In this document: positions 3,804 through 59,448 of the stretch, one piece after another
Numbering within the stretch: the stretch's first letter is position 1
Layout: each line of letters starts with the position of its first letter
Virus record (IMG/VR): IMGVR_UViG_3300028888_000073
Location: 32,001-96,000 of that record
Reading direction: 5' to 3' (one strand)
Length of the DNA: 64,000 nt
Source of the DNA: a virus
Lineage: Duplodnaviria > Caudoviricetes
Notes under the pieces: generated by a model
Told to the model about the DNA's origin: nothing
The model's database searches: none
What the model saw: the letters and a program-made list of their open reading frames with translations, nothing else
Made by a program: the position numbers and the translations under genes

Positions 3804-4859
3804 TTAAAGACCTAATTCTTCAAGCGTCTTATTTCCACCCTGTCTTTCAGGCACATCACCGCCAAGAATCTCAGCGACTTCAAAATCATCAAGCAATCTA
3901 TCGACTTTTATATGTCCAGTAATGACCCACGGAACAGTATCAGGTCTTGGATTTGTGCGATACTTATAATAACCTCTTGTCGGAAGTTTCGGAAGTCCTG
4001 CAAGTGAGTGCTGATATTTATCAGAACGGTACGTTGTTCCATCTGCTCTAGTTCTCATATATCCCTGATCATCTGCTTCTGACTGATAATCAATATCCAT
4101 TACGTAATCACACAGTCCCCAAACAAAGTCATACGGAAAATAAACCTCTCCGGTATTAGCAAGAACTTTGTAGTATGTATCTTCGTCCTGTACGTAAAAC
4201 ACCTTATCATTATTTGCTTGTTTAGCATAATTACTAATAAATGTTTTCATTGTTTTTACTGATTTTGCATCTTCCGTTGGCTCAGTTGAAACCCAAGTAA
4301 CCGATCTATCAAACTGTGGCGCTCTTGGTAGATCGCCTAAATGAAAACCCGGTCGATACGAAAGTTGAGAAGACCCTATACTTTTCACCTGCGGTCTACC
4401 AGTCTTAGAAAGTCCTGCAAATTCTCCCTCTTCTGCGTCAAGCCAAACACCAATAGGAGTATCTTCTCCACCTGCGTTTGCAACCATTGGTGGATACAGC
4501 TTACCATTCTTTACACGGAACACTTTGTACGCTTTGCCAGTTTTAGATTCAGAAAAGTCCATTTCAGAAATTTTTTCGTTAATACGTAGCTTGATCGGTG
4601 TTCTAACACGTTCAAACATATCATAATCAATTACCGCAGAACATTTGTTTTGAATATGCTTTGCAATGGCGTAAACTGTTTTAGATTCACTTCCTGATCC
4701 TGTAATATCAAACTCGCGCTCAATGTCCTCACACAACTCTTCAAGTGTCGGAATAAAACCTCTTACGGCGTGATAAGAAACCTGCTCATCAATATAATTA
4801 TTTATATCTGTAGAATGAGCAATAATATAATCATGCTTATATTGTCCAAGTCTATCCAT
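3804..4859 (-). CDS. Hypothetical protein; C-terminal domain (YKVF..KNGKLYP...YRPGFH) recalled from large polyvalent phage proteins
   Basis: Long ORF with GGAG RBS; the domain similarity is from memory only. Confidence 0.55.
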   Translation of the reverse strand: MDRLGQYKHDYIIAHSTDINNYIDEQVSYHAVRGFIPTLEELCEDIEREFDITGSGSESKTVYAIAKHIQNKCSAVIDYDMFERVRTPIKLRINEKISEMDFSESKTGKAYKVFRVKNGKLYPPMVANAGGEDTPIGVWLDAEEGEFAGLSKTGRPQVKSIGSSQLSYRPGFHLGDLPRAPQFDRSVTWVSTEPTEDAKSVKTMKTFISNYAKQANNDKVFYVQDEDTYYKVLANTGEVYFPYDFVWGLCDYVMDIDYQSEADDQGYMRTRADGTTYRSDKYQHSLAGLPKLPTRGYYKYRTNPRPDTVPWVITGHIKVDRLLDDFEVAEILGGDVPERQGGNKTLEELGL

Positions 4860-4874
4860 TCTATAAAAACTCCT

Positions 4875-5714
4875 TTACGCATATTCTTCATTATCTACAT
4901 AGTCAAGATTTCTTGCATACTTCTTGTCATATTTAATCTCAGTATCCTCAGATCCACATTCAGGACAGTACGCATACCCCTGTAATAGATCATCAAATAA
5001 TCTGCTACTTCTTCTGCTATGAATCGGATCAAACTTTTCAACATATCCACAATCATTACATTTGAAATAGTTTCCGGTTGCTTGTGCTATTGCGGCTTCA
5101 TCATCATGCATAATATAAGGCTCATACGTTTCTCCATCACTAGACAGCTTGTATGAATCAATGTCGCCGCCGCAAATACCGCATTTGTATAACGATGGAT
5201 CGGCTATCTTTTTACAGAACTTTGCAAATGATGCAACATTCTTATCACACTTCGGGCAATATAAAACATATGGTTTCTTTGCAAGTAAACTTCTGAACAG
5301 TTTCGACTCACCATCATCAGCATGTGTATCAATAACTACACCTAAAACGTCACCGATGATTTTTCCCCACTTGTGGAACTCTCTGCCATGATTGAAACAT
5401 CCGTTTATTGTGTGACAAAATTCATGTGCCAACACAGAAAGAACTATTTTATCATCTCTGTCTTCAATCTTAGATAGATTTGGATTTAGTGATATTGTAT
5501 AATCATATACATCGCCATCCGATCCTGTATAGTCATACTTCCTAGAACAACGCCCTAACACCTTTCTATTACTCATTCTTATGTCATTTCCAAGTGTTTT
5601 GCGAATGTGATCAAAAGGAATCGGAATTTCTGGATGTTGTTCTAACTGATCCCACGCAAATTCAAATACAAATTGCATATCATCCTTTGTGTATTCTTCC
5701 AGTATCATTAACAT
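4875..5714 (-). CDS. SprT-like zinc metalloprotease with Zn ribbons
   Basis: LGRC, HEFCH (HExxH), HGREF, four CxxC pairs. Confidence 0.85.
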   Translation of the reverse strand: MLMILEEYTKDDMQFVFEFAWDQLEQHPEIPIPFDHIRKTLGNDIRMSNRKVLGRCSRKYDYTGSDGDVYDYTISLNPNLSKIEDRDDKIVLSVLAHEFCHTINGCFNHGREFHKWGKIIGDVLGVVIDTHADDGESKLFRSLLAKKPYVLYCPKCDKNVASFAKFCKKIADPSLYKCGICGGDIDSYKLSSDGETYEPYIMHDDEAAIAQATGNYFKCNDCGYVEKFDPIHSRRSSRLFDDLLQGYAYCPECGSEDTEIKYDKKYARNLDYVDNEEYA

Positions 5715-5722
5715 ATCACCAC

Positions 5723-5908
5723 TCAATCACCTGAACCATCTGAAAAGTAAATGAAATCATCATCGTCATCATCTTCACAGTCATCATACACAGGTTCTTT
5801 TGTAAAATCATCTACTACATCATGATATTTATTATACCAATAACAATTTATACCACAATGCTCACAGATAACAGATGATGTTTCTTCACCACAATGTTTA
5901 CAAATCAT
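5723..5908 (-). CDS. Small Zn-ribbon protein with acidic tail
   Basis: CKHC...CEHC. Confidence 0.6.
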   Translation of the reverse strand: MICKHCGEETSSVICEHCGINCYWYNKYHDVVDDFTKEPVYDDCEDDDDDDFIYFSDGSGD

Positions 5909-5926
5909 TATGAATCATCGTCCTCA

Positions 5927-6529
5927 TTAAACATAATCTGTTCCTACACGATCAATCCACTCTGTAATATATCCAAATAGATCATCAAGATATGTAGCAG
6001 ATGCATCATCGTACTCTCCATCGTAGTCAAACGTGGCTGTCCACGCATCGTGAATATTTGTATTTGAATGTTCAAGCATTATAGTTGTCAGTTCCTTGTG
6101 TTCATAAGAAGAATATAGAATTACTTCAAATGAATCATAATGACCTCCAGCCATATGAGTACCTTTAACATCAATTGTGTATCCGTTATCATCGACATAT
6201 TCTTGAAGCCTATCTGTAAATTCCTGAAAATCAAGAATTGCAGAAGAACTAGCCTGAGATTCAGCAAATAATTCATTTTTTACGTTTGAGAACTTCAAAG
6301 ATTCACTTACTTCTCCATTATCAGTGCCAAAAGTCTTTACATAAGTATAACATGAAACGGATGGATTCTTTCCAGATTTTATGGCATTTTTAATATACTG
6401 CTTGGCTCCAATTTCAATAACAGCTTGGTTGACACCAAAATCTACTATTTTATTATCGCTATCATCTACAAGTATATATCGTTTAACTTCTTTTTCATTA
6501 TTAGATTTTTCATTAATGTTCAATTTCAT
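5927..6529 (-). CDS. Hypothetical protein (MKLNINE tag)
   Basis: ORF with AAGGTG RBS. Confidence 0.7.
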   Translation of the reverse strand: MKLNINEKSNNEKEVKRYILVDDSDNKIVDFGVNQAVIEIGAKQYIKNAIKSGKNPSVSCYTYVKTFGTDNGEVSESLKFSNVKNELFAESQASSSAILDFQEFTDRLQEYVDDNGYTIDVKGTHMAGGHYDSFEVILYSSYEHKELTTIMLEHSNTNIHDAWTATFDYDGEYDDASATYLDDLFGYITEWIDRVGTDYV

Positions 6530-31621: not shown

Positions 31622-32002
31622 TTAGTTTGGGGGAGTATCATCATTTTGTTCAAGATCACCAGTTCCATATATATTTAAGAAATGTGCAAACGGTAGCGGA
31701 TCATCTACAACATGCTGAAGGAAATACTGTAATACCCACTGCGCTTGCAATGCACCACCAATATCACCCTCACAGTCAATGTCACCTCTAAAGAACCAAC
31801 CGTCATCTGTTGTTTTGTATTCTGTTGATGATCTTACAAAATCTATCAATTCATCAATGTTATCGTATCCACCAATAACAATAGCTTCTAGGAATACGGA
31901 AAGTAGAATCTGACCATCAAGTGCCTTAATTTCTCCATCACCATCAACGTCACCTAAAATGCTATACCCGTTGACAACATCAAATCTATATTCACTGCTC
32001 AT
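31622..32002 (-). CDS. Stand-alone dockerin-like protein
   Basis: GDVDGDGEIKALDGQILL and GDIDCEGDIGGALQAQWVLQYF, duplicated Ca-binding loop-helix. Confidence 0.75.
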   Translation of the reverse strand: MSSEYRFDVVNGYSILGDVDGDGEIKALDGQILLSVFLEAIVIGGYDNIDELIDFVRSSTEYKTTDDGWFFRGDIDCEGDIGGALQAQWVLQYFLQHVVDDPLPFAHFLNIYGTGDLEQNDDTPPN

Positions 32003-41434: not shown

Positions 41435-41790
41435 TCCTTTTGTGTAGGTTTAATTTCTTTTCTTTTTACAATTTTACAGCCACTCCAATTAAACGTCATA
41501 CCCTGTTCAAGATTCAACTTGACATCGGAATTATTGTCTTTATAGTTGCTCAGTGTGAATCTATCATTTTCAAATACGACTTCTGCCGTATTCTTAAACT
41601 CAACCGGATCTGAAAGACCATAAACTGAACAACTGTAGTCAGTAAATTCAACCGTGTCACCTGTGTAGATTGCGCTACCGTCCTTATCACTTCTGCCAAA
41701 GTAGACTCCGCAAGCGGGATCATACTTAGAAATAAAATGCCAGAATCCGAGTTCATCAATCACTCTAAAGCAAAACAATTCACCGCTCAT
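41431..41790 (-). CDS. YopX-like protein
   Basis: DKDGSAIYTGDTV...VVFENDRF. Confidence 0.7.
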   Translation of the reverse strand: MSGELFCFRVIDELGFWHFISKYDPACGVYFGRSDKDGSAIYTGDTVEFTDYSCSVYGLSDPVEFKNTAEVVFENDRFTLSNYKDNNSDVKLNLEQGMTFNWSGCKIVKRKEIKPTQKE

Positions 41791-42317
41791 CAGTAATATA
41801 CCTCTTTCCCGTTAATAATTCCAAACTTCCACATATCTGTAAAGATATTATATTCATCTCCATCACAAACAACAAACATATCATCGTTTGTAAGAAAATC
41901 TCTGATTTTGTCTTTATCTGTGAGATTGATTATGCATTCATCAACACCGCCGATGCCATAATCATATCTTTCATCTTTATGATCAACTGTGAACCCGTTA
42001 AAGTTCGGATAAAACTCTCTGATAATTTCAGCAACGGGTTCAAGTTCCTCATAAAAATCTTCCTTAGTTGTACCATACCCGCACTTAATTGCAACATAAT
42101 ACAGAATCTTTTCAGTAAATGTTGTAAGGACTGTAAACGGTGATCTTCCGTAACAAGTACGCTCATTAGAAAGATTCCATCTGTCCGTATTATCCAGTCT
42201 TGCTTTGATATCTTCTGTAATGGCTTCGCGGTCAATATGCGGAGTTCCGGTCTTTACGCAAATAGAATGCGAACTAGAACTATTCGTTTCAAATACACTA
42301 CTTCTAATAGAAATCAT
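41790..42317 (-). CDS. FETNSSSxHS-motif protein
   Basis: IRSSVFETNSSSSHS N-terminus. Confidence 0.75.
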   Translation of the reverse strand: MISIRSSVFETNSSSSHSICVKTGTPHIDREAITEDIKARLDNTDRWNLSNERTCYGRSPFTVLTTFTEKILYYVAIKCGYGTTKEDFYEELEPVAEIIREFYPNFNGFTVDHKDERYDYGIGGVDECIINLTDKDKIRDFLTNDDMFVVCDGDEYNIFTDMWKFGIINGKEVYY

Positions 42318-42326
42318 AATATCACC

Positions 42327-43004
42327 TCATTCTTTACATTCAGAAAGAATCCGTTCAATCATATCAATATTTGCAATTGCATCTCTATTGATAATACCTT
42401 CTCTCAGCATCTTACTGAAAATATTATCCTGCCCATTTCTACCTTCGATATACATAATTCCGTAGTTTGGATTGAACATGAATTCGCCGATAGAAATTCC
42501 AAGTTCCGAAATCTGATCTGTAATTCCGCCAAGTAATCCGGTTGCAGGTGCGCTGTAATATTTCTTAGATTCATCTGTCTTTTCCGGATATTCGCGCTTG
42601 ATACCTCTATCTGTCCATTCATCAAACGGATCATATTTAACAGTATCACAGCCAATATAATCTTTGATCTCACGCTCCATGACTTCAATCACCGGAAGAA
42701 CATCTTCCTCAGTTGCAAACTGTACAAACTTTTTAATATGAGCACTAAGCAGTGTATTGTATACGATTGACATCTTATGTCCGGTAGTATACTTACTGTA
42801 ATAGCAGAACGGGATAGCCGGATTCGGTTGCAAGAAAACACAAAGCGGACCTCTTACAAATGAATTATAATTATCCTTAATTAAATTCTTAGTTGTTTTC
42901 CATTCTCCGTCTTTTATCCACTCATTATAAAACATATCCTCATAAAGTTTCTGCTTGTCAAACTCTGTCTTATCTTTACGCTCGATAACTATAAACTTCC
43001 GCAT
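42327..43004 (-). CDS. Hypothetical protein
   Basis: ORF translationally coupled to the radical SAM C-half. Confidence 0.7.
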   Translation of the reverse strand: MRKFIVIERKDKTEFDKQKLYEDMFYNEWIKDGEWKTTKNLIKDNYNSFVRGPLCVFLQPNPAIPFCYYSKYTTGHKMSIVYNTLLSAHIKKFVQFATEEDVLPVIEVMEREIKDYIGCDTVKYDPFDEWTDRGIKREYPEKTDESKKYYSAPATGLLGGITDQISELGISIGEFMFNPNYGIMYIEGRNGQDNIFSKMLREGIINRDAIANIDMIERILSECKE

Positions 43005-43843
43005 TAAGCATTCCTCCTAACCTTTGCAAACATTTCTTCAATGGTTTCATCCGTATAACTGTATCGCTCTGTAGATACTGAACTAACAGCGTATTCCTGT
43101 TTTACTGTATCAACATACATTGTGAACTGTCCGTCATCACCCATATAGAAGTGATTGAAATCTTCCGCAGACATGATGTTTCTAACTTCAAGCTGTTTAA
43201 TTGCAAGATTGTCAAATGATACTGTATCAAAGTGATTGATGATATCACCGATATTATCATGCATCCAATTCTTTCTTGCATCAATAAGAGTTCCTGTATC
43301 ACCAGTGTGATATGTATTACCTCTTCGGAATTCCTTGTATCCAAGAATCAAGATTTTAAGACCTTTATCGTACAGTGATTGAAGTGTATTTCTATCAACA
43401 ATTCCATTGATGATATGAATAACAGCATTTGGAATCTCTCTGATCATATTAATGAATTCCGAAGTAGGATTAACAAGCGATACGCCCAGACCATAGATGA
43501 ATTTATTACTCACAAGATTCTTAATACGCGCAAACTCTTTTTCAAAGTGAACCTGATTTACTGTCATGTTCACAATAAGTTTACGATCTTTACAATACGC
43601 AAGAAAATCTTCAAGTTGCGGATGCTCAAGAGGATTTCCGCCGCCAATTGCAAGTTCTGTATACGGATGCAGACTTTCAATGAACGGGACATTCATAATA
43701 TTACCGTGCTTGCCATCCGGCTTAGAATTCTCGTGGCAATTATGGACTAGCACACCATTTGCAAAATAGTTATGATATTCAGCAACCTCTATATTATACA
43801 CATATCCGTCATATTGTGTTTTTTCAATTTTTGAAATCCTCAT
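43004..43843 (-). CDS. Split intein C-fragment (35 aa) + radical SAM C-extein (244 aa)
   Basis: MRISKIEK..VYNIEVAEYHNYFANGVLVHN|C, then ELAIGGGNPLEHP, NMTVN. Confidence 0.92.
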   Translation of the reverse strand: MRISKIEKTQYDGYVYNIEVAEYHNYFANGVLVHNCHENSKPDGKHGNIMNVPFIESLHPYTELAIGGGNPLEHPQLEDFLAYCKDRKLIVNMTVNQVHFEKEFARIKNLVSNKFIYGLGVSLVNPTSEFINMIREIPNAVIHIINGIVDRNTLQSLYDKGLKILILGYKEFRRGNTYHTGDTGTLIDARKNWMHDNIGDIINHFDTVSFDNLAIKQLEVRNIMSAEDFNHFYMGDDGQFTMYVDTVKQEYAVSSVSTERYSYTDETIEEMFAKVRRNA

Positions 43844-44868
43844 TTCTTCTCTCCCTTTTTCAAAGATTCTTTGTGGAAATGTATGTCAACCTCATCATGA
43901 CAATCTGTACATAATACAATACCTATATCATTATTGTTATGATACTCAACTACACGCTCTTCTAATATGTTGTACTCATCTGATCTAAATTGTAAGTTAT
44001 GTATGTCAATGTTTAATTCATGTGCAATGTTTTCAACTATCTCCGAAAATGACTCTTTGTGGTGAATATGAAGAGTTCCGCCAATTTTACCACACCTAGT
44101 ACACGTATAATTTGCATCAGATAGCATTTTCTTTCTCCACGGCTTCAAAGAAATCCTAATATAATTTTTTATTGATCTGGATGTACCGCCCTTCCAGTTT
44201 TTTCTATCACTTCCTCTTTTGTAGGTAAGTTCACCGGACGCTACACGGGCTTTTATTGTTTCTTTCATTTTCTTAACAGTTTCACTATTTCGCATTGGGT
44301 TATTTGCTTTCATCCTCTCGGATGTCGCCGTTCTAAATTCAGCCATTCGTTCTTCTCTGTGTGAATCTTTATATAACTTATCTTCTTGTTCAATTCTCTT
44401 TTTCTCCGTGTATTCTTCATCAGTTAGTGATACACCAAAATAAGAAGGATTATTTAATTTCATCCTGTGCGAGAACTCTAACCATGTATTGCGCTTACAA
44501 TCCTCACATGTCGTTTCCTTAGATTCGTATAATGGCGACTTGCTTATATTTTTTATACGTGTGCCTAAAACTTTACCACACTTCCTACACACTATCTTCT
44601 GCTCGAATTTCTTAAAGTTATAGTGTTTAGGTCTTACACAATCCGGACACTTTTCCTTACTTTGTTTATCAGTTGCATAGTATGTTTTTCCACATTCTAT
44701 ACAAACACACTCTTTACGTCTTACAGAATATCTGTATTTATTGTACTTATCTCTGCACTCTTTTTCATTACAAACTATTACTCTATGATCTCTTGGAATA
44801 AAATCTTTTCCACAAAATTTACATTTTATTGGAAACTTTTCTTTAGGCTTTGTCATATAGGTCATCAT
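43840..44868 (-). CDS. Free-standing HNH homing endonuclease with Zn fingers and NUMOD-like segments
   Basis: CTRCG..LHIHH...GIVLCTDCH; SERMKANNPM; NWKGG; likely start 44856. Confidence 0.88.
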   Translation of the reverse strand: MMTYMTKPKEKFPIKCKFCGKDFIPRDHRVIVCNEKECRDKYNKYRYSVRRKECVCIECGKTYYATDKQSKEKCPDCVRPKHYNFKKFEQKIVCRKCGKVLGTRIKNISKSPLYESKETTCEDCKRNTWLEFSHRMKLNNPSYFGVSLTDEEYTEKKRIEQEDKLYKDSHREERMAEFRTATSERMKANNPMRNSETVKKMKETIKARVASGELTYKRGSDRKNWKGGTSRSIKNYIRISLKPWRKKMLSDANYTCTRCGKIGGTLHIHHKESFSEIVENIAHELNIDIHNLQFRSDEYNILEERVVEYHNNNDIGIVLCTDCHDEVDIHFHKESLKKGEKK

Positions 44869-45292
44869 CTTCTTTCAGGTCACATGCGCTTACCCAACCA
44901 CGATTTGTTGTATAAAATTTATGGTTCGGTGTGCAATTAATTATTTTTCCGTTTTCAAGCGTTATGTGAATAATTTCTCCGGTATGCCAGTGTTTATACA
45001 TATTAGTAACAGTAGAATTTGTGATTGTGTTCGATTTGTCATCAAACGCTATCACATTATCTCCAATAGAAATTTTTTCAATTGCGGTTTCTCCGTTATT
45101 TGTAGAAACCATAGTTCCGTCAACAAAACAAAATTTACAGTTCATATCGCATTTGTTAGTTACCTTAACGTCTATGCTCTCTGCAAAAGCCGGAATCATC
45201 TTACCATCTTTGCATGACCTGATCTTAGTTCCATCACTAAGCATAGCAACATTATAATTTCCGTTTGTATATACACCAATTACTGATCTCAT
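44843..45292 (-). CDS. Radical SAM N-extein (54 aa) + split intein N-fragment (95 aa)
   Basis: TNKCDMNCKF|CFVDGTMV (block A)...CTPNHKF (block B TxxH)...GWVSACDL. Confidence 0.92.
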   Translation of the reverse strand: MRSVIGVYTNGNYNVAMLSDGTKIRSCKDGKMIPAFAESIDVKVTNKCDMNCKFCFVDGTMVSTNNGETAIEKISIGDNVIAFDDKSNTITNSTVTNMYKHWHTGEIIHITLENGKIINCTPNHKFYTTNRGWVSACDLKEDDDLYDKA

Positions 45293-45316
45293 TTTTTTTT
45301 ATCCTCCAGTTATATG

Positions 45317-45769
45317 TTAATCTATGTAAACACACTCATGATAATATTTTCTAGGTATGTCAACATCATCATGATATCTGTGTAGTGGCGGTTCATCAGA
45401 TTCTTCATCAAATGTAAATGTTCCGTTTCTATCATCAACAGCATAATCGAATTCCATTGTTACAAGAGATACATCAGTACATCTTGATTTTACTTCAATT
45501 CTTGCATTAGTTGACACATTAAATGATACTTCGTCTGTTCCATGATACATATCACCATCATGTTCAATGTTACGACCAATATGTTCATCAAGATTGTCTA
45601 ACAGTTTCTTTTCATAATGTCCCGTGTGAAGTGACGGATCAATGATTGCAAAGTCAAACGGCGATTCTGCACGGCTAGTATCTTCAACAACTACAGTAAT
45701 ATCCCTCATACAAACTGGTAAATCTTTATCATAATACTTTAATCGCTCCATAAGTTCACCTACAGTCAT
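45317..45769 (-). CDS. Hypothetical protein (MTVGELMERLK N-terminus)
   Basis: AGGAG RBS. Confidence 0.65.
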   Translation of the reverse strand: MTVGELMERLKYYDKDLPVCMRDITVVVEDTSRAESPFDFAIIDPSLHTGHYEKKLLDNLDEHIGRNIEHDGDMYHGTDEVSFNVSTNARIEVKSRCTDVSLVTMEFDYAVDDRNGTFTFDEESDEPPLHRYHDDVDIPRKYYHECVYID

Positions 45770-45775
45770 TATATA

Positions 45776-45994
45776 TTACTCCTTACTGTCAAAGAATGTA
45801 TGTGTATATGCGCTGACGGCTCTAGGATTCAAACATCTGTTTTCCATAAAATCCTTAAAGTCATCATCATCAATTACCCATCCTACTGAACCACCTACAT
45901 TTGTAGCTTTCAAATCTCCGCTTTTAATCCACTTTGTAATAGTTGCTCCACACACATCAACGGCTCTTGCATAATAAGACTTTTTGTGAATCAT
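45776..45994 (-). CDS. Excisionase-like winged HTH protein
   Basis: TITKWIKSGDLKA...WVIDDDDF. Confidence 0.75.
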   Translation of the reverse strand: MIHKKSYYARAVDVCGATITKWIKSGDLKATNVGGSVGWVIDDDDFKDFMENRCLNPRAVSAYTHTFFDSKE

Positions 45995-46011
45995 ATAATT
46001 TTAACCCCCTA

Positions 46012-46641
46012 TCAAACTTCTCCGACAATATTAAATCCAAAATACCTTGTAAGAATCGGACGCATCCATTCCCACATATCAGGATATAATACAGAAGATA
46101 TAGGTTTCACAAAGCGAGAAAATTTTCCACGATTATGTGTATAGTAAAACTCAACACCATTATCATCAGTAACGTATCCTAGATAAATAGCATCATTTGA
46201 TTGATCATACTCAGGAACATGATCACGATAATAACATTTCAATCTATAGATTGTCATATCAATATTGATATGCTTTGCGTACTGTTCCGCATCGAACCTA
46301 TTCTCAAAGATTGAAATATTGTGCGCAATATCGTATATGTCGCTTCCGTCAATATATGACGTATCGACATCATCATCACATACAATGATAGGATTCTTGT
46401 ATGATGTTTTATCATCTGTAATCCAAATACTGTAAAACTTGTCTAAATCTTTCGGTATCCATAACGTGAAATCCCTATCTTCTGTATCTTCATTAGCTGT
46501 CTGCTCAATAGTGTCCGTGTCACAATCAGTCTGCGAATTCTTACTGATTGTCTTTTTAATGTCAATGAGTTCATTTTGCAGATTATTCAGCAACTCTGTC
46601 TGCTGTGCAAGAATTTTAGTAATCTCATCCATACGTTCCAT
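46012..46641 (-). CDS. Hypothetical protein
   Basis: GAGGT RBS. Confidence 0.65.
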   Translation of the reverse strand: MERMDEITKILAQQTELLNNLQNELIDIKKTISKNSQTDCDTDTIEQTANEDTEDRDFTLWIPKDLDKFYSIWITDDKTSYKNPIIVCDDDVDTSYIDGSDIYDIAHNISIFENRFDAEQYAKHINIDMTIYRLKCYYRDHVPEYDQSNDAIYLGYVTDDNGVEFYYTHNRGKFSRFVKPISSVLYPDMWEWMRPILTRYFGFNIVGEV

Positions 46642-57738: not shown

Positions 57739-57763
57739 ATACAAACATCTCCTTTATATTTAA

Positions 57764-58573
57764 TTAGAAAACGTAATTGACTGCATCATCACGGCTGAGA
57801 AAGAAATGAATTCCTTTTCCGCATTCTACTTGAGGATTATCGTCAAAGTTATATACTTCAATAAATCCAGTATGATACTTGAACAGCGGGTCCCAAAAAC
57901 TGTGTACAATTGTATCGTCTGGAAGTTTTTCACCACCAAGCGTTTCAAACCCTAACACTTCAACTTTGTCTGCTCTGCACTTGTTGTTTGCACAGAATCG
58001 CTTTGCATCTTCCGGAATACGTAGCTTAATGATAACAGCTTCATCAACCGAGTCTGCCTTTTTCCATGCAATGAATGAACCATCTGACGGAACATGACGC
58101 GGAAAGATAATATTAGAATTAATAGCAGAACATTTATCCATTTCACACGAATAGAACTGAGTGTATCTTCCGTCTACATCGTCAAACACAGTGAAAGAGA
58201 GGTCTGAGCACATAAAGTTTACATCAGACATAGAACATTTAATAATAGCAGAACCACTAATGTCACATAAATTAAAGTCTGTTCCGACAAATTTACAACC
58301 TATAAAAGACTTGATCTTCAGTTTACAGCAGTTAAAACTGCAATAACGCAATGTGCAATTTGTAAGATTAAATAAGCTATAATCAACATAGATAAATTTA
58401 ACACTTATAAAATTGATACCGTTGAGTGGACGTTCAAATCTACAATGAATAAATACTTGATTTGAAATCTCTTCAGGAAATGTGATGCCTTTACCGATAA
58501 TATATCCGTCAAAGTTTTTATCCGGATCATTAAGTATAGAATTGAATACCTCTTGCGTAATCTTTTCAAGCAT
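57764..58573 (-). CDS. Pentapeptide-repeat + DUF5758-like protein
   Basis: Same architecture as 47806; CGKGIHFF. Confidence 0.85.
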   Translation of the reverse strand: MLEKITQEVFNSILNDPDKNFDGYIIGKGITFPEEISNQVFIHCRFERPLNGINFISVKFIYVDYSLFNLTNCTLRYCSFNCCKLKIKSFIGCKFVGTDFNLCDISGSAIIKCSMSDVNFMCSDLSFTVFDDVDGRYTQFYSCEMDKCSAINSNIIFPRHVPSDGSFIAWKKADSVDEAVIIKLRIPEDAKRFCANNKCRADKVEVLGFETLGGEKLPDDTIVHSFWDPLFKYHTGFIEVYNFDDNPQVECGKGIHFFLSRDDAVNYVF

Positions 58574-58587
58574 ATATGTATCCTCCC

Positions 58588-59427
58588 TCACGTAAACTTA
58601 TAATTAATAGCGTCTGTTTTATTTAGAAAGAAGTGAATACCCTCACCGCATACTATAGTTGGTTTATCACAAAACGAGTCAGACTTAACAACTCCGATTT
58701 TATAATGAAAATCTTTATCATACCAACTACGAACATCAGTATCGTCCGGAAGTTTCTCACCAGACAGTGTTTCAAATCCCAAAACCTCTACTCTGTCCGC
58801 ACGGCATTTATTAGTAATACCGACACGCTGTGCATCTTCTGGAATACGCAACTTAACAATTACATTTGGTGTATAATATCCGTCATAATTGTAATTAACT
58901 GCCTTTTTCCAAGCGATGAACGATCCTTCAGCCGGAACAGTTTGTGGAATGTCAATATTTGAATCAAAGATAGTACATCTACTCAGATCACAATAATCAA
59001 ATAATAAACCATTAGATGTCATGTCATCAATTTTTATACCTCTAAGATCACTACATCTAATACGCAAATTATTAATGTCACATTTAATAAATTCTGAGTC
59101 AGTGAATGAACAAAAATAAAAATGTGAATTAATAAACGAGCAATTGTGAAACGACCCTGACTGTGTGTCACAGTGCGTGAACTCTGTTTCATAAAACTTA
59201 CAACTGCTGAAAATTGTTTTGTTCTTAATATAAAGAGTGTTATATGCTAGCCATTCAACTTTGTCAAAATAACAAAAACGGAATTCGACATTTTCTATTG
59301 ATGTTTCAAATAAACAGTTTGAAAATTTAACGTCAACAAGTTTCTTTGGAAACGATAATTCATTTCCGATAATACAATTCTCTATAATTTCAGCATTATC
59401 CAGTTCACTCTGAGTGAGTCTACGCAT
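58588..59427 (-). CDS. Pentapeptide-repeat + DUF5758-like protein
   Basis: Same architecture; CGEGIHFF. Confidence 0.85.
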   Translation of the reverse strand: MRRLTQSELDNAEIIENCIIGNELSFPKKLVDVKFSNCLFETSIENVEFRFCYFDKVEWLAYNTLYIKNKTIFSSCKFYETEFTHCDTQSGSFHNCSFINSHFYFCSFTDSEFIKCDINNLRIRCSDLRGIKIDDMTSNGLLFDYCDLSRCTIFDSNIDIPQTVPAEGSFIAWKKAVNYNYDGYYTPNVIVKLRIPEDAQRVGITNKCRADRVEVLGFETLSGEKLPDDTDVRSWYDKDFHYKIGVVKSDSFCDKPTIVCGEGIHFFLNKTDAINYKFT

Positions 59428-59448
59428 CGTTTATCATCCAATCATTTC

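Follow-up and report, generated by a model that had tools for sequence, protein, structure and literature searches.

Genes fractured by split inteins were described by Dassa, London, Stoddard, Schueler-Furman and Pietrokovski (2009, PMC2677866), among them gp41-1 to gp41-8, NrdJ-1, NrdA-2, IMPDH-1 and others. The same authors predicted that HNH genes could also fracture genes, and presented no case. The window analysed here, a stretch of 64,000 nucleotides from a rumen jumbo phage of the Caudoviricetes (IMG/VR record IMGVR_UViG_3300028888_000073, positions 32,001 to 96,000), has on its minus strand a radical S-adenosylmethionine (SAM) gene in two halves, with an HNH-type gene between them. This locus is read as a genuine fractured gene, made of a naturally split class-1 intein and a free-standing HNH gene, with a probability of about 85%. 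Like the loci of 2009, it has a free-standing nuclease gene between the split-intein halves, and the break is at the endonuclease-insertion point. In contrast, the 2009 nucleases are GIY-YIG or Vsr-like and their eight hosts act in DNA synthesis or repair, whereas the window has a zinc-ribbon/NUMOD-like HNH and a radical SAM host. The layout has been known since 2009 (PMC2677866), and the first-pass annotation of this DNA had also called it known; what is new is the radical SAM host and the HNH type of nuclease.

The first half-gene encodes an N-extein ending in CDMNCKF, followed by a Hint-type N-terminal intein part (IntN) that starts with Cys. The second encodes a Hint-type C-terminal part (IntC) ending in LVHN, then Cys and the radical SAM body (Table 1). 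The HNH open reading frame (ORF) is positioned between them, in a frame different from both. It overlaps the N ORF by 26 nt (14 nt if it starts at the ATG at 44856) and shares an ATGA stop/start overlap with the C ORF; both overlaps, proposed in the first-pass annotation, can be read in the sequence. The three ORFs end in TAA, TGA and TAA, and the N and C ORFs share one frame, 1449 nt apart. The three ORFs are positioned as first annotated, all on one strand, and profile matches uphold the earlier division of each half: PF07591 (1.6e-13), PF14890 (4e-11) and TIGR01445 (4e-10) for the N ORF, and TIGR01443 (5e-9) and phrog_16999, 'Fe-S oxidoreductase' (2e-39), for the C ORF. The Pfam Radical_SAM model stays below its cut-off for either half alone. 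Cys1 comes directly after the N-extein, block B contains TxxH, the intein ends in Asn and the +1 residue is Cys, as in class-1 inteins. Here these features are divided between two separate polypeptides, each from an ORF with a ribosome-binding site and a stop codon.

Table 1. Features of the fractured locus and of the genes for the FETNSSSxH partner protein (window positions unless a locus is given).
Feature	Position	Strand	Remarks
N-half ribosome-binding site, GGAGG	45303..45307	(-)	10 nt ahead of ATG at 45292
N ORF	44843-45292	(-)	149 aa: N-extein and IntN
N-extein, 54 aa	45131..45292	(-)	First two Cys of CxxxCxxC are C48 and C52; aligns with N-termini of uninterrupted homologues
IntN, 95 aa	44846..45130	(-)	Cys1 is C55; block B TPNH at 121-124; acidic tail; TAA stop at 44843-44845
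HNH homing-endonuclease gene (putative), free-standing, 342 aa	43840..44868	(-)	338 aa if ATG at 44856 starts; HNH C-terminal; ATGA overlap with C ORF at 43840-43843
C-half ribosome-binding site, GGGAG	43851..43855	(-)	Within 3' end of HNH ORF
C ORF	43004-43843	(-)	279 aa: IntC and C-extein
IntC, 35 aa	43739..43843	(-)	LVHN at its end
C-extein, 244 aa	43007..43738	(-)	Begins with +1 Cys, third ligand of the cluster; includes the GGGNP region of the SAM motif; followed by TAA at 43004-43006
Partner gene, conserved	41790..42317	(-)	N-terminal FETNSSSxH motif; adjoins radical SAM gene in relatives, fused in some proteins
FETNSSSxH gene, L021	7525-8696		
FETNSSSxH gene, L022	7290-7889		
FETNSSSxH gene, L035	4574-4969		
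FETNSSSxH gene, L002	3759-4259		

Splicing in silico joins the 54 and 244 extein residues into a protein of 298 residues, in which alone the CxxxCxxC motif is whole. Comparison with uninterrupted homologues, which the first-pass annotation had proposed as a check, gave 17 alignments in which the junction is crossed by a single high-scoring segment: Ma-LMM01 gp128, the Lak megaphage homologue and 15 IMG/VR loci. As had been claimed, a 298-residue product results; it aligns end to end with the uninterrupted phage proteins, and its +1 Cys matches the third Cys of their contiguous CxxxCxxC, which is followed by H or Y and then E. In the uninterrupted homologues C54, C58 and C61 do not vary.

The N and C ORFs share a frame, and one might suspect a truly contiguous intein with an in-frame HNH domain, broken by an assembly or frameshift error. 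The HNH ORF, however, is in another frame with its own start and stop, and contigs from four runs of four studies contain no coding indel. One of these, X2, from a 2025 run of another study, covers all 2501 bases with 159 substitutions (about 6% divergence); its sole indel is outside the coding part, in the spacer 5' of the N-half start codon, where two A are missing between the ribosome-binding site and the ATG. Pieces from two further studies (X3 and X5) cross both ORF junctions without gaps. In a protein search, N-half proteins (N-extein plus IntN, about 148 aa) form at least 34 clusters with an identical junction and end point, and the five diverged loci terminate there as well. Because independent contigs lack coding indels and 34 N-half clusters share the break point, an assembly or frameshift artefact is excluded, with only an extremely small residual probability. 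This outcome, named at first pass as one that would overturn the fractured-gene interpretation, is contradicted by the contigs and clusters alike.

A second possibility is that the insertion killed the radical SAM gene and that the halves are decaying relics. This would fit with the gene being missing from many phages and with the unassigned function of the enzyme, and yet substitutions in the halves are mostly synonymous in two independent pairs. Between the window and X2, the listed C-half changes comprise 26 synonymous and 5 nonsynonymous, with 24 of 31 at third positions (p=6e-7). All motifs are intact and all frames are open over diverged loci. Purifying selection acts on both halves, and decay is very improbable.

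Phage introns commonly host HNH genes, and a group I intron carrying the HNH ORF and excised from RNA was also considered. A search of Rfam over 42000-46500 at E<=1 found nothing, introns included, and folding of the RNA at both ORF junctions was ordinary (z -0.48 and +0.88). Unlike the loci of Dassa et al., which have hairpins upstream of their nuclease genes, the two junctions of the window show none like those. An intron would also leave unexplained the Hint halves that are in frame with both exteins. An intron, likewise raised at first pass as a potential refutation, has next to no chance of being correct and is the least probable of the alternatives. A scan for promoters and terminators gave fewer promoter-like sites than in shuffled sequence and no terminator, and megablast of the locus against GenBank phages gave no match.

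The split intein itself is closest by sequence to NrdJ-1, and not to the gp41 type that the fragment sizes had first suggested. Against solved structures, the IntN family profile has the NrdJ-1 split intein as its best match (3e-14; 2e-7 with the single sequence), a bacterial intein-like domain second, and gp41-1 at only 1e-4. NrdJ-1 presumably carries Ser at +1; the intein of the window has Cys. Compared with the NrdJ-1 structure (PDB 8ubs), the block B and the acidic IntN end are similar, but the two inteins have low identity overall and differ in host and insertion site. Aligned with contiguous inteins of the family, the break falls at a 6-residue linker in the mini-intein of P0067 (40% identity with IntN, 49% with IntC) and at the LAGLIDADG insert in P0173. 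By this alignment it is the canonical endonuclease-insertion point.

A model of the IntN and IntC complex reached an ipSAE interface score of 0.76, against 0.00 for the best control, and may reflect mere likeness to solved split-intein complexes. Its runs agree in at least 93% of contacts, and the partner has a predicted local distance difference test (pLDDT) of at least 73. Of 80 solved complexes, 58 attained the mark applied, as did 2 of 110 mismatched pairs. A further alternative is that the intein halves have ceased to splice and only tie the enzyme pieces together non-covalently. As far as the account in PMC3045599 goes, there is a precedent in fragmented ribonucleotide reductases, which are assembled by domains derived from mobile elements; moreover, Cys1 or the +1 Cys could supply the cluster ligand without ligation. 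On the other hand, at 36-54% identity, 34 N-halves keep Cys1 and TxxH without exception, and 8 C-halves keep the terminal Asn and the +1 Cys. C48, C52, Cys1 (C55) and T121-P-N-H124 do not vary over the 34 N-half clusters, nor do the terminal Asn (N35) and the +1 Cys (C36) over the 8 C-halves. Such invariance would not be expected of a binding-only role and counts against it, so that non-splicing halves are an improbable explanation of the locus.

The middle gene has 11 homologues that share four N-terminal CxxC zinc-ribbon pairs, two RMKxNNP NUMOD-like motifs and a C-terminal CxxC..HH..N..CxxCH..D pattern; C252, C255, H265, H266, H306, C316, C319, H320 and D324 are invariant, in agreement with a beta-beta-alpha-Me motif, with its His..Asn..His and two CxxC zinc pairs. 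The ORF matches phrog_589, 'HNH endonuclease', at 1.6e-4. In a model of the protein (pLDDT 81), residues 214-330 resemble T5 SciA (Z 7.2, rmsd (root-mean-square deviation) 3.3, 96 aligned), GVE2 HNH (Z 5.9) and McrA (Z 5.1), values that are moderate, and a Foldseek search with the C-terminal domain gave T5 SciA at probability 1.0 and a TM score of 0.62. As a lone query against IMG/VR the protein found no relative; relatives emerged only with the alignment as query. From its motifs and predicted fold, the gene is accepted as a divergent HNH homing endonuclease, with putative cleavage activity. The free-standing HNH gene of the first-pass annotation is supported by motif, PHROG match and fold, though not by Pfam.

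Several points weigh against reading the locus as a functional fractured gene. No Pfam HNH model passes for the middle ORF, the best being HNH_2 at 0.074, in 2 of the 11 members. The penultimate residue of IntC is His or Ser, with Ser in L022, L023 and L035, which would also suit halves that do not splice. Selection for the spliced product cannot be linked to a phenotype, the function of the enzyme being unassigned, and we infer splicing itself, the nuclease target and any regulation.

The HNH gene of three relatives has an unusual codon pattern. In L021 (5515-6677), L022 (5446-6426) and L023 (5446-6426) it is broken only by TAG codons (6, 9 and 9, respectively), with no TAA or TGA, and reading TAG as Gln restores a full-length alignment with all invariant residues present. 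Both radical SAM halves have zero TAG in these three loci. The pattern fits TAG-recoded phages, in which the nuclease would be translatable only with recoding active. On the minus strand of the window, none of 61 ORFs of at least 120 aa ends in TAG (41 end in TAA and 20 in TGA), while the ORFs at 4802-5389, 57760-58185 and 59034-59441 gain several internal TAGs on read-through. A tRNA scan of the window and the remainder of the 118-kb record found none, so no suppressor tRNA.

The N-terminal architecture of the HNH protein was also encountered within contiguous inteins. L026 (4299-7244), L054 and L060 (4221-7085) have ORFs of about 950-980 aa with a contiguous intein, inside which another frame holds an ORF of 268-272 aa whose N-terminus has the zinc ribbon and NUMOD-like motifs of the window's HNH. 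Judged by eye, its C-terminus resembles the Vsr/EDxHD type.

Four IMG/VR contigs have the complete layout, including a homologue of the middle gene at 30-43% identity: L021 (553,716 bp, 25% GC, Lak-like), L022, L023 and L035 (180,800 bp). L024 has a like intein and HNH at CxxxCxx/C (the slash marks the insertion point) of another radical SAM gene, of about 28% identity over one 60-residue stretch. L104 looks like another case of the L024 type; its HNH gene and IntC half are present, and the N-half was not found in 2.5 kb upstream. L130 (1873-4664) has a fractured gene of a third radical SAM family, with the break directly ahead of the first Cys in CxxxCxxC, so that the +1 Cys is the first ligand; its split intein is related, and the middle gene keeps the NUMOD-like repeats while its nuclease domain differs. 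Since the window-type, L024 and L130 genes are all fractured at or next to CxxxCxxC, the radical SAM cluster motif is, on this comparison, a recurrent insertion target. No fractured radical SAM gene was found in species-representative bacterial and archaeal genomes, where hits were mainly to RecA inteins.

Most relatives of the host enzyme are uninterrupted. An exhaustive search with the C-half gave 1965 cluster representatives (454 at E<=1e-30), mostly proteins of about 300 aa without insertion. Among the top 150, contiguous inteins are found at the identical site, with LAGLIDADG in P0054, P0084, P0111 and P0173 and as mini-inteins in P0053, P0067 and P0129. NCBIfam NF038136 (intein-containing Rv2578c-family radical SAM) and L135 are similar to the window in that the insertion is right before the third Cys. 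In contrast to the window, the contiguous inteins of these proteins and of the phage family are part of one polypeptide, with LAGLIDADG or no nuclease and no separate HNH gene. The first-pass annotation did not recognise any radical SAM host interrupted in its Fe-S motif; the novelty that this implied is not supported, as P0053, P0054, P0067, P0111, P0129, P0173, L135 and NF038136 all have contiguous inteins there.

Some of these inteins differ in position or host. P0197 (694 aa) has a LAGLIDADG intein at a second site, just ahead of the GGGN SAM-binding motif, and P0194 has an intact CxxxCxxC with a Hint-like N-part downstream. L135 (2764-5172), from a Woesearchaeota metagenome-assembled genome, encodes an 802-aa radical SAM protein, apparently of the AmmeMemoRadiSam type, with a LAGLIDADG intein at GCNLHCEF/C ... 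SN/CQNW, in the position seen in the window. The phage of the window has another intein outside it: a 964-aa anaerobic ribonucleotide reductase NrdD (G000:C1:~108004-110898; L005:73-2967, minus; PF13597 4e-81) with a contiguous intein (PF14890 3e-7).

Evidence for mobility comes from comparing closely related loci. Between L022 and L023, only 4 of the 1358 bases in the tract 5166-6523, which runs from the Cys1 codon through IntC, are different, whereas the N-extein has 13 differences in 162 bases and the C-extein is about 9% diverged. Because the cassette is near-identical between phages with diverged exteins, the split intein and HNH gene must have moved recently, or have been homogenised, as one unit, and this pattern is the footprint that would be expected of homing. 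The five fractured alleles do not cluster on the extein tree, where L021 pairs with the uninterrupted Lak-B6 allele as its sister (80% identity; support 100/100). The fractured allele of L022 is 96.6% identical to the uninterrupted P0060, and most of the differences are within the eight residues preceding the insertion point. By these comparisons, the cassette is still on the move between phages.

By its sequence relationships the host gene belongs to a phage-specific radical SAM family (phrog_16999). A model of the uninterrupted homologue L006 (pLDDT 87.6) matches SuiB, SkfB, CteB, GDGT-MAS and BlsE at probability 1.0 and shows the generic core fold of radical SAM enzymes, a partial TIM barrel, with no SPASM domain. 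Searches for enzyme function in NCBIfam, PDB profiles, Foldseek and the ESM Atlas likewise gave only this generic core, and the Atlas clusters of the enzyme are viral and labelled merely 'radical SAM protein'.

In the window, the Lak phage, L021, L022 and L035, the enzyme gene is found together with a gene for a protein that has an N-terminal FETNSSSxH motif. L021 has this gene in duplicate, while P0094 and P0102 are fusions of the protein with the enzyme. Searches of Pfam and PHROG assigned the protein to no family, and the Atlas had no named cluster for it. Since the two are neighbours throughout the relatives and fused in P0094 and P0102, the FETNSSSxH protein and the radical SAM enzyme probably work together, as partner or substrate. 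In the window a 225-aa ORF without a family match, 42327-43004 (-), lies between the radical SAM C-half and the partner gene; the two genes are directly adjacent in Lak-like loci (L002, L021) and in L022.

The following mechanism is proposed. A composite mobile element, consisting of a class-1 intein split at its usual endonuclease-insertion point and an HNH gene in the gap, would have inserted at the codon of the third Cys in CxxxCxxC. The three ORFs, in one minus-strand gene row, would be co-transcribed and translated from their own ribosome-binding sites, of which those upstream of the N-half and C-half were identified. The half-proteins would dock via IntN and IntC and then trans-splice; Cys1 would depart with the intein, and the +1 Cys would remain, completing the cluster motif of a 298-aa enzyme as its third ligand. 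Intein-less alleles of co-infecting relatives would be cut by the HNH enzyme, and homing would follow as repair copied the whole cassette in. Because the 54-aa piece has the cluster loop and the other piece has the barrel, neither half should be active alone.

Whether splicing is regulated can be considered in the light of the Pyrococcus abyssi MoaA intein (Callahan et al. 2011). As presented in PMC3922620 and PMC10663303, a native disulfide between Cys-3 and Cys1 blocks splicing of this intein until it is reduced. On these accounts, the MoaA intein and that of the window are both in radical SAM enzymes and share the Cys-3/Cys1 geometry (C52-x-x-Cys1 in the window), but the former is contiguous and archaeal, while the latter is split and from a phage. 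Judging from the published position of Cys-3, and not from its sequence, the MoaA intein is probably also inserted at CxxxCxx/C. Redox control of the same kind may be possible in the window. The unspliced N-half formally retains a CxxxCxxC with Cys1 as its third Cys, and C52-x-x-Cys1 is a CxxC pair. A more speculative proposal, given rather low odds here, is that of a natural conditional split intein. A Cys-3/Cys1 disulfide or [4Fe-4S] binding would hold Cys1 and block the first step of splicing, so that ligation of the oxygen-labile enzyme would require reducing conditions or depend on Fe-S status. A second layer would be added in TAG-recoded relatives, where the nuclease gene, with its 6-9 in-frame TAGs, could be translated only after recoding had begun. 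A splicing-dependent switch of enzyme activity, as suggested at first pass, is a hypothesis.

Literature searches found no paper on a split intein in a radical SAM enzyme, nor on one whose halves are separated by an HNH gene in any host. For the inteins of actinophages, a 2025 preprint reports other non-canonical nuclease layouts, and not that of an HNH gene in the split intein of a radical SAM enzyme. The locus has practical as well as biological implications. At least 34 diverged natural IntN/IntC pairs akin to NrdJ-1, with Cys at both nucleophile positions, are candidate orthogonal tools for protein ligation. The Cys-3/Cys1 geometry within the Fe-S motif makes redox- or cluster-gated trans-splicing directly testable.

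For the biology of split inteins, the class of fractured genes is widened past hosts of DNA metabolism and past GIY-YIG and Vsr-like nucleases, and the HNH prediction of 2009 is confirmed. In addition, one gene family spans the proposed series of an empty site, a mini-intein, a LAGLIDADG intein and a split intein with HNH. With this series in a single family, and with direct evidence from populations that transfer was recent, it becomes possible to test there how split inteins arose.

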